DNA from: a candidate division WOR-3 bacterium
GTDB taxonomy: Bacteria > Hydrothermota > Hydrothermia > Hydrothermales > Hydrothermaceae
Assembly: GCA_039803745.1 (NCBI GenBank)
Contig: JBDRZD010000035.1
Location: 1-19,375 of the forward strand
Length of the DNA: 19,375 nt
Direction of reading: 5' to 3'
Shown here: positions 3,001 through 12,000 of the stretch, piece after piece
Numbering within the stretch: position 1 is the stretch's first letter
Layout of the letters: the number at the start of each line of letters is the position of its first letter
Position numbers: made by a program

Positions 3001-6000
3001 CAAGGCTTAAAAAGGCTCTGTGTTCTTTTTCATAAACTGCGAATTGTCTCTGTATATCAGAAAAAATAACAGTCTGGATTAAAATTAATATAATTATAAA
3101 AAGGATTATTCCAACACCTGCAACTTTTGCCAAAAAATCAAAAGGTAAAGCAACTTTTTCCTTTTGTATTTTTAAACCAAGATGAATCTCACCAATTTTT
3201 ACATCCTTTTCTTCTGTTTTGAAAATTACTGGTGCTATAATCTCTGTAATTTCTCCAACATTTTTTATCTCACTATTTAAATTCTTAAGCATGGAAAAGT
3301 TATAAAAAGAAGAAAAATTCCTGCCAATCTCATTTTCTTTTAAAGAACCTATTATCTTTCCATCTCTATCTATCACCACAAAATAAGCAATCTTCTCATC
3401 TTTTTCCATTGTCTTTATTCTATTTGTAATTACTTCAAAATTTTCATCAATAATAAAATCAACTAATGTAGTTGCAAGGCTTTCTAGATTTGTTCTGTAC
3501 AAATTTATAACATTTTCCTCAGGCTCACTTTTCTTTTCAGGATAAAAATAATATACTGAGAAAACAATTCCTATAAGAAAAATTAGATTAAAAAGAAATA
3601 TTAAAATTTTATATTTACTCATATTTTAAATTATAAATTATACAAAAAAAAATTTTTTTTGTCAAATAGAAAAAATAAAAATTTAATCCCTTAAAACCCT
3701 CATTGAAAGGTCTATCCATTTTGAAGAATGGGTTAGATAACCAATTGAAATATAATCTATTTTTAGATCTTTATAATCCAGAATATTTTCAAGATTTATG
3801 CCACCAGAAACCTCTATTTCGCATTTTCCATCACATATTTTTATAACTTCTTTAATTTCATCAATTGACATATTATCCAAAAGTAAGATATCAGCTCCAT
3901 ATTCTATTGCTTCTTTTGCCTCCTCAAGATTTTTTACTTCGATCTCTATCTTCATTCCAGGTGGTTTATTTTTCTTCATATTTAAAATTGCATTCTTTAT
4001 TCCTCCTGCAAATATTATGTGATTATCTTTAATAAGTATGCCTGAATCAAGGGATAACCTGTGATTAAACCCGCCACCTGTTTTTACTGCATATTTTTCA
4101 AAAATTCTTAAACCAGGTATTGTTTTCCTTGTATCTAAAATTTTTATCTTGCTTCCCTTTAATTTTTCAACAAATTTCCTTGTAGTTGTTGCTATACCAC
4201 TTAATCTCATTAAAAAATTCAAAATAACTCTCTCTGACTTTAAGATGCCTTTTGCACTTCCTTTTATTTTTATTAAATCCTCTCCCTCCCTAAATTCTTC
4301 ACCATCCTTTTTAAAAAATTCTATTTCAAAATTTCCAAAATACTTGATTATTTCAGGAACAAATATGCTTCCTGCAAGAATTCCTTTTTCTTTTGAATAT
4401 ACAATCCCGATTCCTTCAAAATCTTCTTCAATAACTCCATCAGTTGTTATATCACCTTTACCTATATCTTCTTCTATCCATATTCTTATATATTTATCTA
4501 TATTCATTAGAACCTAAAGGATGCTCCTACAAGAATTTTGAAATGACCACTTCCAATCCCTGTTCTTTTATCAAGATATTTTATATATTCAATTGAGCCA
4601 GCACCTGTAATATCTTTTGTAAGTGCATAATTTAAGTCAATGTTGAAATTTGTAGAACTACGATGATCAATCCTGTTACCTGCTGCGGACTTTGTTTCAC
4701 TTAAACTGAATCTCAAATTAACATTTAGTTGACTCTTTAGCTTCAAAATGCTTGTTTTTGAAAAAGGAAGTCTTATTCCCTTTGGATTACTATAAGAAAA
4801 TTCAAAGGAGCCTGAAAATGTCCTTGTTTCACTATTTGAGGAATAACTTGCTGTCTGTGTTATTGACCTTCCTGTTCTTTTATTTAAATTGTAAGATAAA
4901 TTAAATCCAACACCATTTCTCAATCTACCCTGAAAGCTTAAAAGAGGAGAAAAGTTATTTGATTCATTAATATTTAAAGAGGTAAAGGATCTTGTTTTTT
5001 CAATCTCTTTTGTATATCCTGATTGAAAATTAAGGGAACTTAAATATTTCTTTAACCCTTCAAATTTCATATGAATCGCTGAAACTGTTAAATCAATTGA
5101 GGGGAATTGAATCCTGTGTGTCTTTGAAGGTGGAGAATTAAATGGTCTTGTTATTCTATCACCTGTTTCATATTTTAAATCTATACTTAAAAGTTCAAAG
5201 TCAAAACCTGTTGAAACACTTTTTGTTTCATTTTCAACTATATTATTGGATAAAGAATATGGAGATGTGGAATCAAAAGGAATTTTATGGGTAAAACCAA
5301 ATCTATAATAATAATCAGGCAATTTTCTTAAACTGTAATAACTGCTTTGAAAACTCTTTGTATAACTTAAATTGAAGGGATTTATATTTTTTAGAAATTT
5401 AAAACCTTCTTTTGCTTCTTTTTTAGTAAAAGATATTATCTTATCAATAATTTTAACAAAATCAAGGCTTGAACTAAAATTATAAGAAGAACTTGATGAG
5501 ACATTGTCCCATGGAATTTTTACAATAGAATCACTAACATTTGTATTTCTTGTGGAATTAAAATTAGAGTTATAACCAGAAGAAAATGAATTAATAAATT
5601 CCCTAAAAATATAGGGTAAGGTTGGTCTATAATTCAAAGAGAAATTCTGTGAGAAACTTCCCATCTCTCCCCACCACCTTCCTCTTACACTTTCCCTTCT
5701 AAGATCATACTTCTGGGAAGAGGAAAAGCTTAAATCGGTACTCCTTAATGGCCTAAAGGAGATTCCCTCAGAAGGATTGAGAATTAAATTTTTCATACTT
5801 CTATCTTTCATATAAGAAGAATCCCGAAAAGTATATACCCTCTGAATTGATGAACTATAATCAAGAGAAGTATTTAAGTTTGTTGGGAATGGATTTATTT
5901 CCTGTCCAAGAAATTTAAAACCTGAAAAAATTATTGGAAGGGAATAGCTTGCTCTTGAACTAAAATTTCTTAATGTATCAAGAGTCAATGGGTCTTTCTT

Positions 6001-9000: not shown

Positions 9001-12000
9001 TAAAAACAAGCAGGCTCTCTTTTTACCCACTAAATTATAATTATCAGCATCATCATAGAATACCCATAATGTTTCAATTTCCTCATTTTGTGGAACCGGT
9101 ATTTTAAAGAAAACACCCCTTACAAATTCATAATCAGAGAGAGTATCTTCCTTTGTAAAAGTAGGACTCTTTGTAATCTTTTTAGCCTGTCCCTGCTCCC
9201 TTGAAAGAATACCTTCAAAGGAAGTAGGTCCAAGTTGAAAAACACCCCTTATCCCAAAAAGACCCTTACCACCCGCACCCTGGGAAGAACCCAAATTAAA
9301 TTGAGTATTTCCAGCCTCTATGAGTTTTATAATTTCATCTTCATCACCTTGATATTGTAATTTTACTGTATTTTTATATTGAGCCTCCCTTTCTGAATCA
9401 TGGTCAAGGTTAACCTTTATCTTATTTCCAATTGTTCCAAGAGCGTTTACTCTTAATTTCTGATTCATCTCAGGATGGGGTAAATTTGATGTCTCTGTTA
9501 TTGCTGGATTTCTATAAAGGTCTTTTGTAATGCCAAAGGAAATATCCTGGGAACCTGAAATCTTTATGCTTGCACCTTCACCTATTCCTAAAACTTTTGG
9601 AATAGGAATTGGAATATCAATTTCTGGAATAAGGCCACCTGTCTCTTCAAGCTTTTTCTTAAAGACACTATCCCTTATACTTTTGTAAACAACATCCTTT
9701 TCAATTTTTTCTTCTCTTTCTTCCTTTATCTCTTCAATATTTTTTATTTCTATTTCATGAATGAATTCATTTGCACCTTTATATTTTACATAAAATTCTT
9801 CAAAGAAAATATTTGATGAATCTCTTATATATTGAGAAAGCAATCTATTTTCAAGAGAATCCTGAATCCATAGACTTATAAAAAATATTAAAAAATTCAT
9901 CTTTTATCAAAAAAAATGGATATTAAAAATAAAATTATTATTCCTATTGTTATAGATGAATCAGCAATATTAAAGATTGGCCATCTCAAATTTTCGGAAA
10001 TTCCAATATCTATGAAATCAATAACTGCTTTAAATCTCAATCTATCAATAAGGTTTCCGATTGCACCGCCAAATAAAAGGGAATAGGGAATTATATAAAT
10101 TTTTTTCTTTTCAAAAATCAAAAAAAGAATCAAAATTAAAATTATAATAAGAGCAATAACCTCATAGGGGAACCATTTTGGGAAAGAAATTCCCCATACT
10201 CCAAAGGGATTTTTTATGTATGTAATCCATATATAATTCCCCATAATTTTTAGAGGCTCTCCATAAGGCAATTTTTTTGCCACTATATATTTTAAAATCT
10301 GGTCAATAAAAATTACAAATAAACTGATTGTGAAGAAAATAAAAAACTTATTCTTTAATAAACCCTTCTCTTTTTTCAATTTCTTCCTGACATTTTATAC
10401 AATACCTTGCATATGGAACAGCCCTCAATCTTGAAACTTCAATATTTTTATTACATCTAAGACATACCCCATATTCTCCTCTTTCAATTCTCATAAGGGC
10501 ATCTTCAACTTCTTTGAGGCGTCTATGAGCGCTTGAAGCAAAAATTGAGATCTCCTCTGTGAATTCTTCATTGGATGCCATATCTGCCAAGTGATAAGAG
10601 AATTTCCTGTCACCTGTTTTTTCAAAAATATTTTCTTTAAGTTTTTCCTCTGATTTTCTTAAAATTTTAAGTAGCTTTTCTCTTTCAAGTAAAAGTTTCT
10701 TTTTTAAGGCATTTAAAGTCCTCTCATTCACTTTCCCCCCTTATTTTTTTTATAATTTCATAACATCTTGGACATAGGGCATCAAAATCTTCATCCTTTT
10801 TTAAATTTTCAGAATACATCCAACACCTTATACATTTACTTCCTTTTGCTCTTTTAACAAAAACTTCAATTTTTAAATTTTCATCATAAAGATTCTCCTC
10901 AAAATTAGAAGGTTTTTCAAAGAATACATCAGATACAATAAATATTTCTTTTAAATATTCCTTATATTTTAAAAGAATGTCAATTTCTCCATCAAAATAT
11001 AAGTTTGCTTCAAGGGAGCTCCCTATGATTCCCTTTTGTCTTACATTCTCCAATGCTTTTAAAACTACATCCCTTATATTTTTAATTTTTTCAAAATCAT
11101 TAAATATCTCTTCATCATAAAAATCATAATCCTTTATCTCTTCAAAAAATATGCTCTTTTCTTTTTTACCTGGTATCTTTAAGTATGCTTCTTCGCATGT
11201 AAAACTTAAAATAGGTGAGCCAAAAATAAGGAGTTCCTTTAAAATTATGTAAAGGGCAGTTTGGGCGCTCCTTCTTTCAATTCCCTTTGAATAGGAAACA
11301 TATAATCTATCCTTCAATGCATCAAGATAAAAAGAGGATAAAGTGTCTGAACAGAATGTGTAATAATCTTTAAAGAATTTATGAAATTCAAAATTTTTAT
11401 AGTTTTTTATCCATTCTTCCCTTTTTATTTTAAGTAAAGACAATATGTATTTATCAAAGGGAAGCATTTTTTCAAAATGGACTTTATCTTTTTCTGGATC
11501 AAAATCATAAATATTTCCAAGTATAAATCTGAATGTATTTCTTATCTTTCTGTATATCTCCACATTCCTATTTAAAATCTCATCAGATAATCTCACATCC
11601 TGAGTATACTCTGAAGAGGCAGCCCATATTCTAAGGATTTCGGCTCCATATTTATTACATACTTCAATTGGGTCAATAACATTTCCTAAGGATTTATGCA
11701 TTGCCCTTCCTTCCGCATCAAGTGTCCATCCATGAGTTATACATATTTTATAAGGGCTTTTTTCTCTAAGTGCCATACTTAAAACAAGGCTTGCATTAAA
11801 CCATCCCCTATGCTGATCAGGCCCTTCAATATAGACATCAGATGGCCAGGGAAGATTTCTTTCTTTTAAAACTATAAGACTTGTTAATCCTGAATCAATC
11901 CATACATCAAGAATATCAAACTCCTTTTCAAATTCTCTTGAATTACATTTTTCGCATCTTATATCTTGAGTTAAAAATTCACTCAAATCATGATTTAACC

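Follow-up and report, generated by a model that had tools for sequence, protein, structure and literature searches.

The window, a 19,375-nucleotide stretch of DNA from a candidate division WOR-3 bacterium of the Hydrothermota, contains a gene run, ileS-dksA-lspA-sprA-nadC, in which neighbors overlap or abut one another:

3683..4507, minus strand: nadC, directly downstream of sprA with 1 nt in common (TIGR00078, 327.9 bits)
4507..9900, minus strand: sprA/sov, predicted to encode a short-form type IX secretion system (T9SS) outer-membrane translocon, ORF of 1797 aa (TIGR04189, PF14349, PDB 6h3i/6h3j)
9897..10379, minus strand: lspA (signal peptidase II), directly upstream, its stop overlapping the sprA start by 4 nt (PF01252, 114 bits; TIGR00077, 102 bits)
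10348..10731, minus strand: gene for a dksA/traR-type zinc-finger protein (PF01258, 46 bits; NF033459, 73 bits, below the cut-off of 105)
10724..13522, minus strand: ileS, head of the gene run (TIGR00392, 823.6 bits)

This arrangement shows that sprA sits among housekeeping genes and not in a secretion island, and its placement in a housekeeping ileS-lspA operon distinguishes it from sprA of the canonical Bacteroidota T9SS. The sprA product was recognized by the SprA/Sov equivalog model TIGR04189 (385.4 bits, cut-off 200, E 5.5e-115) and by PF14349 SprA_N (57.5 bits, cut-off 27), and it matched the solved F. johnsoniae SprA (6h3i/6h3j) over three stretches with an E value of 5.8e-30. The N-terminus read from the sequence, MNFLIFFISLW, is short and hydrophobic. 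An earlier survey of the genome had reported a SprA/Sov protein of 1797 aa at 4507-9897, which our analysis upheld, the end at 9900 being one codon away and the discrepancy trivial. In Bacteroidota, SprA is a protein of about 2400 aa that forms a 36-strand barrel with a cap and a lateral opening. The SprA encoded here is ~600 aa shorter, with the difference scattered across numerous small insertions that fall mainly in the C-terminal third, and short forms of ~1750-2100 aa recur consistently across phyla, with only about 20% identity to Bacteroidota SprA. By these matches, the product is a genuine but short SprA/Sov translocon.

Other outer-membrane parts of the pathway are encoded elsewhere in the genome. 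PorV is found at C20:9980-10984 (NF033709, 204.3 bits, cut-off 90, matched span C20:10040-10981), and the PorU sortase at C7:24881-28678 (NF033707, 428 bits, cut-off 420) lies in tandem with a second copy that scored 411 bits on the same model. A PorU2/PorV2-like set is also present. Two PorV/PorQ-OmpA fusions, on contigs C31 and C37, combine a PorQ-type barrel with PorE-like OmpA domains; the barrels scored 131.7 and 134.7 bits on the PorV_fam model, over its cut-off, and 72-79 bits on the PorQ equivalog model, under the cut-off of 220. Each fusion adjoins a ~1180 aa FG-GAP or BNR beta-propeller protein with a C-terminal domain (CTD), and for these propeller proteins no match to the PorZ model was listed at E≤0.001. 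Across the whole genome, the type A CTD model TIGR04183 gave 44 matches at E≤1e-3, 41 of them over the cut-off. The survey's finding of PorV, PorU, two PorV/PorQ-OmpA fusions and at least 30 CTD proteins was borne out, with the tandem PorU copy as an addition. As judged with the same curated models, the genome has SprA/Sov, PorV, PorU, PorQ-type barrels, a PorE-like OmpA module and type A CTD cargo in common with the canonical Bacteroidota T9SS of F. johnsoniae and P. gingivalis, from which it differs in that the PorQ and PorE-like domains form one fused protein.

A further difference from the canonical system is that GldL/PorL, GldM/PorM, GldK/PorK, GldN/PorN and SprE/PorW were all missing, and PorP/SprF had no match, in searches that relied throughout on sequence profiles trained on Bacteroidota. 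In agreement with the survey, the models TIGR03517 (GldM), TIGR03513 (GldL), TIGR03525 (GldK) and TIGR03523 (GldN) each had 0 matches at E≤10 in the whole genome. HMMs built from the Bacteroidota control proteins were also run without filters (hmmsearch --max) against all 13,367 six-frame segments of at least 40 aa, and the best E values were 0.8 for GldL, 2.1 for GldM, 1.2 for GldK and 2.1 for GldN. Domain models for GldL and GldM returned only noise or a frame-crossing coiled-coil match in this genome. For PorW/SprE, the best single stretch reached 33.6 bits, the level of TPR repeats only, and no match was obtained here at E≤1e-12; among 17 genomes, the cut-off of 250 was exceeded only in the 2 controls (604 and 754 bits). 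The PorP/SprF model TIGR03519, run without a positive control, had 0 matches in the genome at E≤0.1. A positive control for the four Gld searches, missing from the survey, was now included, and the GldK, GldL, GldM and GldN models each scored over cut-off in both Bacteroidota genomes.

A GldLM-type motor could still exist in a form too divergent for profile searches, or one that is non-homologous. Such a motor would suit the energy requirement of substrate release in Flavobacterium, where deletion of the motor or of SprE leaves substrates trapped on SprA-PorV and the authors regard release as the energy-requiring step (PMC10994853, in excerpt). We nonetheless judge this improbable, since GldL_N (PF22827) is very strongly conserved, with 97-98 bits over 62 positions in both Bacteroidota controls, yet occurred in 0 of 151 Hydrothermota genomes at E≤0.01 and reached a best E of 0.13 in 13 non-Bacteroidota genomes. 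Moreover, two topology scans combined with Pfam turned up no unexplained pair of a 2-TM protein and a bitopic protein of ~500 aa.

The scans left two short 2-TM ORFs and one 419 aa protein without annotation. Candidates rejected for the role of GldL were Band_7, TrkA channel and bPH_2 proteins, and those rejected for the role of GldM were HtrA, transglutaminase, SpoIID, GGDEF, AsmA, PpiD, YbbR, YceG and DUF4340 proteins. An unannotated 466 aa protein proved DUF3352/DUF2138-like in the ESM Atlas.

With an assembly of 100 contigs at 93.48% completeness, gldKLMN might be missing merely because the genome is incomplete or contigs were mis-binned. The likelihood of this is negligible, given that GldM and GldL_N were each found in 0 of 131 high-quality genomes of the phylum, including 3- and 4-contig genomes that are 99-100% complete. 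Across the full Hydrothermota sample, GldM was found in 0 of 151 genomes, which confirms and widens the survey's report of its absence from other members of the phylum, and SprA orthologues of about 1750-2000 aa were found in 148. Outside the phylum, the four Gld models failed in 12 of 12 SprA-bearing genomes of other FCB lineages (Ignavibacteriales, Cloacimonadota, Zixibacteria, Calditrichia, Eisenbacteria, KSB1, Fidelibacterota and further lineages), and by the same models the Ignavibacteriales genome G003 is without all four Gld proteins. PF22827 GldL_N and PF12081 GldM_1st stayed below the cut-off in all of 15 genomes except the two Bacteroidota controls. The survey had presented the lack of GldKLMN as a trait of this phylum; the absence itself held up against the controls, but its restriction to the phylum did not. 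The unrelated energizing device that the survey considered is hypothetical. From the failure of the Gld models in other FCB phyla and from the phylum-wide counts, it follows that we are dealing neither with an assembly gap nor with a peculiarity of Hydrothermota. We consider it highly likely that GldKLMN homologues are truly absent and that this absence is typical of the lineage, and, as far as sequence profiles can tell, Hydrothermota as a whole and other FCB phyla outside Bacteroidota normally do without the energy chain of GldL/GldM motor, GldK/GldN hub and SprE/PorW.

A similar pattern has been noted for Melioribacter and Ignavibacterium, also of a non-Bacteroidota FCB lineage, in which SprA, PorV and Plug are present with no other T9SS protein; the excerpt devotes one sentence to these taxa of an oral database and gives no mechanism there (PMC11705866). 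Compared with the set in that excerpt, the present genome additionally has PorU sortases, PorQ-type barrels and ~40 cargo genes, and here the pattern was counted phylum-wide.

Release of PorV/PorQ-type carriers from SprA might alternatively be driven by an ExbB-ExbD-TonB motor, either the general one or a private one, for which a candidate operon was found on another contig:

C29:3640-12842, minus strand: putative private-motor operon, in the order CTD protein, PorV/PorQ-family barrel with internal CTD-like Ig domain, TPR protein of 820-1100 aa, ExbB, ExbD (one or two), TonB-like protein, Ig/OmpA-like protein

Only three MotA/ExbB stators are encoded in the genome, belonging to Tol-Pal, to TonB with a receptor and to this operon, whose gene order was retained in 9 of 9 fetched Hydrothermota loci as well as here. 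The operon contains ExbB (PF01618, 95.5 bits) and ExbD (PF02472, 68.8 bits); the TonB_C assignment comes from orthologues, in which it follows an N-terminal TM helix with an invariant His, the tonB-like gene of this genome having been read in its C-terminal part only. No Plug or TonB_dep_Rec gene lies in the operon, and the outer-membrane partner is the PorV/PorQ-family barrel. One orthologue of this barrel scored 96.5 bits on NF033709 PorV_fam (cut-off 90), and its family profile aligned with the PorV of this genome with an hhalign probability of 99.2% (E 7e-20). The Ig domain of the barrel is nearest to the CTDs of PorU (6za2_B, Z 11.2, rmsd 2.4 over 94 aa) and PorZ (5m11_A, Z 9.9), and the Y component of C29-type operons occurred in neither of the two Bacteroidota controls.

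A comparable cluster is the Agl-Glt "core complex" of aglR/Q/S with gltD/E/G/C (Luciano et al. 2011, PMC3169522, in excerpt), which likewise groups a TonB-like bitopic protein and large TPR proteins with a motor of the TolQ/ExbB-TolR/ExbD kind, the architectures being compared by description only. The C29 operon additionally encodes a PorV/PorQ-family barrel and a T9SS-type CTD protein, neither of which the excerpt describes for the Myxococcus system. The conserved pairing of such a barrel with its own ExbB-ExbD-TonB motor fits a powered process and runs counter to motor-free release.

Three relatives are near-closed, namely G020 (100% complete in 3 contigs), G034 and G040; they have SprA and 38-48 CTD matches, and each has exactly one MotA/ExbB stator, which in G020 lies within an ExbB-ExbD-ExbD-TonB-receptor cluster of the ordinary TonB-receptor type. 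A TonB system as the sole proton-driven stator would be in keeping with a TonB-type drive, and since the one ExbB-type stator of these three relatives belongs to a standard TonB cluster, they have no spare motor of that family. The C29 operon, however, is not universal: the barrel query had no match in 6 of 6 f3 genomes, and the Y profile had none in 3 of 3 f3 genomes even though these have SprA and 38-48 CTD genes. In the set of 12 FCB genomes from outside the phylum, a full-length match to the Y profile was confined to G012, and the two Eisenbacteria gave partial matches. In addition, a motor gene, with exbB, exbD and tonB included in the count, was present in 0 of 13 SprA neighborhoods of non-Bacteroidota genomes. 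On balance, a TonB-type drive, the chief competitor of motor-free release, appears rather unlikely, though less so than a divergent GldLM-type motor.

The low identity of short SprA to the Bacteroidota protein, only about 20%, might also mean that the SprA homologue and CTD tags play no part in secretion, or that the barrel is otherwise employed and CTD proteins exit by another route. We regard this as very improbable, as an intact SprA persists in 148 of 151 genomes, from streamlined organisms of 1.2-3.9 Mb, and it is maintained alongside PorV, PorU and 38-48 CTD genes per genome, a joint retention that is hard to explain unless the pathway works.

Our best explanation, offered tentatively, combines these points: the T9SS would be reduced to an outer-membrane-only pathway, truly and lineage-typically without GldKLMN and without a dedicated motor. 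The part of this statement that holds that no dedicated motor is used at all is a plausible reading, short of a probable one. The pathway would consist of SprA, PorV, two PorU, the PorU2/PorV2-like set, two PorQ-PorE-like fusions and about 40 CTD cargo proteins. Cargo would pass the inner membrane via Sec, and its CTD would dock on PorV at the lateral opening of SprA, as in Flavobacterium. The PorV-cargo complex would then exit the translocon without a dedicated motor, direction being provided by irreversible later steps in which PorU cleaves the CTD and attaches the cargo and the PorQ-OmpA fusions serve as anchors. Given the energy-requiring release in Flavobacterium, motor-free release would need a different affinity between PorV and SprA.

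Type V autotransporters, two-partner secretion and the chaperone-usher pathway all secrete across the outer membrane without an energy source at that membrane. As a working analogy, motor-free release from SprA may resemble these systems in drawing its direction from irreversible steps outside the periplasm, although their proteins are unrelated to those of the T9SS. T9SS cargo is believed to be in a folded state as it passes the very large SprA pore, which makes folding energy a less obvious driver.

According to current models, the T9SS cannot pull its carrier-cargo complexes off SprA unless it has a proton-driven GldLM motor and a GldKN hub (PMC10994853; PMC12635249). Here one whole phylum, and six or more others in the sample, retain pore, carriers, sortases and cargo genes by the dozen in the absence of that energy chain, and some near-closed genomes have one Ton motor and no further motor of that kind. 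One scenario, which we find unlikely enough to raise only as speculation, is that the ancestral FCB T9SS was an outer-membrane-only SprA-PorV-PorU sorting device without a dedicated motor, to which Bacteroidota later added the GldLM/GldKN/SprE chain together with gliding, while Hydrothermota, Eisenbacteria and other phyla separately evolved a PorV/PorQ-type carrier barrel pulled by its own ExbB-ExbD-TonB motor. If true, Ton parts would have been assembled into a functional analogue of the GldLM chain. The role and necessity of energy in the T9SS become a comparative and experimentally testable question, for which the short SprA would offer a natural minimal translocon for structural work, and the answer would bear on how abundant uncultured FCB lineages build their surface proteomes.

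Among the 17 ORFs of at least 80 aa in the window, one encodes the translocon of a type IX secretion system (T9SS). It is listed here with three further ORFs of the window.

Window 4507..9900, minus strand: sprA/sov, 1797 aa, NCBIfam equivalog TIGR04189, "T9SS outer membrane translocon Sov/SprA"
Window 1123-2694, plus strand: 523 aa FG-GAP repeat protein
Window 2681-3622, minus strand: ORF of 313 aa lying downstream of nadC; its dCache and coiled-coil matches are weak, and it has no others
Window 15662-18760, minus strand: 1032 aa ORF in no Pfam or NCBIfam family; it shares its strand with, and lies upstream of, rsmF, the gene of a small TPR protein, and ileS

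The sprA product scored 385.4 bits on TIGR04189, for which the cut-off is 200, and 57.5 bits on Pfam SprA_N, and it matched the solved Flavobacterium johnsoniae SprA (6h3i, 6h3j) with an E of 6e-30. Its N-terminus is short and hydrophobic. The gene sits within a housekeeping run, ileS-dksA-lspA-sprA-nadC, whose members overlap or abut, and not within a secretion island. Short SprA proteins of ~1500-2100 aa were found in protein-database records named WOR-3, Zixibacteria, Cloacimonetes, or Calditrichia, and lengths of ~2300-2540 aa in most records named Bacteroidota, the ~600 aa gap being no single missing domain but the sum of many small insertions, most of which fall in the C-terminal third. 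No motor gene was found in the SprA neighborhoods of the 13 non-Bacteroidota loci compared. What recurs beside sprA in these other FCB phyla is divergent lptF/lptG, the LPS export permease, upstream in six of the 13 loci (L003, L004, L005, L006, L019, and L075) and a Peptidase_M28 gene of ~305 aa downstream in six (L003, L005, L006, L010, L015, and L063), and nothing else; neither adjoins sprA in the window. Many FG-GAP proteins elsewhere in the genome do have a C-terminal sorting domain (CTD); the genome-wide list of CTD matches contains none on the window's contig, and so none for the 523 aa FG-GAP protein.

Further outer-membrane T9SS parts were located on other contigs of the genome.

C20:9980-10984: PorV, 204 bits against a cut-off of 90
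C7: tandem pair of PorU sortases, 428 and 411 bits against a cut-off of 420
C13:22811-29363 (L131): third sortase-like set, a Peptidase_C25 protein, then a 432 aa protein, then a PorV2-like barrel
C31:12948-19360 (L129): propeller-CTD protein, PorQ-PorE-like fusion of 496 aa, then a ~405 aa protein
C37:9545-15976 (L130): paralogous set of the same order, with a fusion of 565 aa

Both proteins of the C13 set that resemble known families fell below the equivalog cut-offs: the 1462 aa Peptidase_C25 protein with 254 bits on NF033707 and 166 bits for a PorU2-type N-terminus, and the 290 aa barrel with 77 bits on NF052325. The C31 and C37 fusions each comprise a PorV/PorQ-family barrel, a CarboxypepD_reg-like stretch and an OmpA domain; they resemble PorE in the latter two elements, here joined to the barrel. 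Each lies directly downstream of an FG-GAP or BNR beta-propeller protein of ~1180 aa with a CTD, and the third member is OMP-like in the C31 set and a HEAT-repeat protein in the C37 set. The two sets have the look of peptidoglycan-anchored attachment pairs of the PorZ-PorQ type. Genome-wide, the type A CTD model gave 44 matches at E<=1e-3, 41 of them over the cut-off. The survey's finding of an outer-membrane T9SS with SprA, PorV, PorU, fusion proteins and CTD cargo is borne out, and the inventory is if anything richer than claimed.

The survey had also found no GldK, GldL, GldM, or GldN, albeit without a positive control. In our searches TIGR03517 (GldM), TIGR03513 (GldL), TIGR03525 (GldK), and TIGR03523 (GldN) each gave no match at E<=10 in the whole genome. 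Control genomes were reached via two of 80 SprA loci retrieved with a four-sequence SprA alignment from named genome records, and two Bacteroidota, a Prolixibacteraceae chromosome and Coprobacter secundus, served as positive controls. All four models exceeded their cut-offs in both, the genes forming a gldK-L-M-N cluster, and the translated control proteins were recognized by Pfam GldL_N, four GldM domain models, and GldN, so that the reported absence is now upheld with the control it had lacked. Across 15 genomes including this one, the GldL_N and GldM_1st domain models reached the cut-off in the two controls only. A GldM_1st match at C24:19858-20259 (E 0.0015) was spurious: it runs through six stop codons, and the coiled-coil region in which it falls, between pheT and the gene for RNase Y, is rich in lysine and glutamate. 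HMMs built from the control proteins and run by hmmsearch --max (no pre-filter) on all 13,367 six-frame segments of at least 40 aa gave best E values in this genome of 0.8 (GldL), 2.1 (GldM), 2.1 (GldN), and 1.2 (GldK).

A very divergent or non-homologous GldLM-like device might have gone unrecognized by such models, and we consider it improbable. A strict hydropathy scan for GldL/GldM-like topology gave seven two-TM and ~90 bitopic candidates, and 20 were taken to Pfam, where 16 fell into a family, none of them GldL or GldM, and four had no match. A lenient paired scan gave 12 pairs, none convincing (among them pilins, NADH dehydrogenase subunits, and a DUF2905-like protein paired with one of 159 aa). 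The two scans and Pfam revealed no two-TM protein in this genome adjoining a bitopic protein of ~500 aa without other identity. Two family-less bitopic proteins, L118 and L128, had no PDB sequence match below E 0.1. L118 was ruled out as GldM, being DUF3352/DUF2138-like in the ESM Atlas; L128 (G000:C9:27619-28878) is a 419 aa protein.

Of 17 genomes searched for the remaining member of the Bacteroidota energy chain, SprE/PorW, the two controls alone exceeded the cut-off, this genome yielding TPR-level matches only. The PorP/SprF model, run without a positive control, had no match in this genome. Proteins of 610-820 aa in Calditrichaceae, Fidelibacterota, Ignavibacteriales, Zixibacteria, and Cloacimonadota, and in none of the Hydrothermota genomes, score 62-114 bits on the PorW/SprE model, short of its cut-off, over ~300 positions at the N-terminal end (for example G006:C645:1062-2066, G014:C366:5073-5912, and G011:C18:125179-126153 in three comparison genomes), and they may be distant SprE relatives.

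The genome spans 1.67 Mb in 100 contigs and is 93.48% complete, which raises the question of an assembly artefact; we regard this explanation of the missing genes as unlikely. Within a phylum sample of 151 genomes of at least 80% completeness, 131 of them high-quality, SprA was present in 148 (130 of the high-quality genomes) in open frames of ~1750-2000 aa, and neither GldM nor GldL_N was found in any of the 151 at E<=0.01. It is likewise unlikely that the T9SS parts are non-functional here. The four Gld models also failed in all 12 SprA-bearing genomes of other lineages (Ignavibacteriales, Cloacimonadota, Zixibacteria, two Calditrichia, two Eisenbacteria, KSB1, Fidelibacterota, and three further MAGs), six of which gave, for the GldK model, nothing beyond sub-cut-off FGE-sulfatase-type matches. 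One of the 12 is a MAG labelled uncultured Bacteroidales, of uncertain lineage, with a full-length SprA match to the query (28% identity). The missing motor and ring are no assembly gap and are not peculiar to this phylum. The survey had proposed, as one of its alternatives, an unrelated energizing device in this phylum; the gap behind that proposal is real, but it is found in non-Bacteroidota FCB lineages in general. A single published mention, made in passing, concerns Ignavibacteria: Melioribacter and Ignavibacterium are said to have SprA, PorV and Plug and to lack every other T9SS protein (PMC11705866).

Three stators of the MotA/ExbB/TolQ family are encoded in this genome.

Stator 1: Pal-YbgF-TolQ-TolR-TolA-TolB
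Stator 2: ExbB-ExbD-ExbD-TonB, with an adjoining TonB-dependent receptor
Stator 3, C29:3640-12842, minus strand, outside the window: 561 aa protein with T9SS-type CTD, 452 aa protein, 922 aa TPR protein, ExbB, ExbD, TonB-like protein, 280 aa protein

All nine loci that were fetched from the phylum's other families keep the gene order of the C29 operon. The 452 aa family is a PorV/PorQ-family barrel: on NF033709 (cut-off 90) an unmasked orthologue scored 96.5 bits, and the family profile matched this genome's PorV with an hhalign probability of 99.2%. An Ig-like domain follows the barrel, and its best structural matches were two CTDs, that of PorU with Z 11.2 and that of PorZ with Z 9.9, only ~1 Z unit above unrelated Ig-like folds. 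In this genome's own copy of the operon (L106), runs of N lie at ~5310-5893, in the TonB-like gene, and inside 9789-11147, in the barrel gene; the AF2 model of the barrel protein, whose gene has this masked stretch, has a pLDDT of 69, with only the Ig domain comparable. The 280 aa family has the same Ig-like domain and a weak OmpA match, and in the TonB-like orthologues an N-terminal TM helix, in which a His is invariant, is combined with a charged linker and a TonB_C domain. SprE/PorW was rejected as the identity of the 922 aa TPR protein, which had 106.5 bits summed over seven TPR stretches against a cut-off of 250; YbgF-type repeats gave 231 bits. Through the operon, T9SS-style outer-membrane parts are genuinely linked to a Ton-type motor at the genomic level, and in architecture it is similar to the Agl-Glt "core complex", which has no assigned function (PMC3169522).

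The C29-type operon is nevertheless not the general answer to the missing motor. It was not found in the two Bacteroidota controls, nor in f3, a family of the same class (none of six genomes with the barrel query, none of three with the 280 aa family profile). In the 12 other FCB genomes, full-length matches to the 280 aa profile were confined to the closest relative, and the two Eisenbacteria matched partially. The f3 members G020, G034, and G040 are 99-100% complete, G020 in three contigs and G034 in four; they have SprA and 48, 44, and 38 CTD matches, respectively, and neither GldM nor GldL_N. Exactly one MotA/ExbB stator was found in each, which in G020 (G020:C2:208317-213559; L188 7317-12559) lies in an ExbB-ExbD-ExbD-TonB cluster; the protein encoded next has the carboxypeptidase-regulatory and Plug domains seen in TonB-dependent receptors. 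The second stator needed for Tol-Pal was not detected in the three genomes, an unusual state for a diderm. A Ton-type drive is the main rival explanation of how secretion is energized, one to which we give a minor share of the probability: these near-closed genomes retain no proton-driven stators other than Ton systems, and in about half of the phylum sample a PorV/PorQ barrel is tied to a Ton motor of its own.

The T9SS of this organism is lineage-typical and reduced, with a translocon, sortases, carrier barrels, PorQ-like barrels that are probably anchored to peptidoglycan, and a large set of cargo proteins, and it has no detectable homologue of the Bacteroidota energy chain. The most likely reading, which we hold tentatively and by analogy, is that carrier-cargo complexes would leave the short SprA without a dedicated motor, and that PorU, through CTD cleavage and attachment, would render the exit irreversible; outer-membrane secretion routes without an energy source at the outer membrane offer an analogy for such PorU-driven irreversibility. 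Against exit without a motor stand findings in Flavobacterium, where, in the portion of PMC10994853 available, substrates are trapped on SprA-PorV when the motor or SprE is absent and, in the authors' conclusion, the step that requires energy is the release of substrate. Energy delivery there is described as running through a moving track, with outer-membrane proteins joined to it by disulfide links (PMC12635249, available in part).

A complete T9SS was found by TXSScan in Bacteroidetes only, according to the part of PMC4793230 available. With supplements left aside, the literature searched yielded no explanation of a motor-less T9SS and nothing on this phylum; "WOR-3" combined with "type IX secretion" returned no papers. 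The system is a variant of the known T9SS and not a new kind of system, and its value is that the energy requirement of type IX secretion becomes a testable question.
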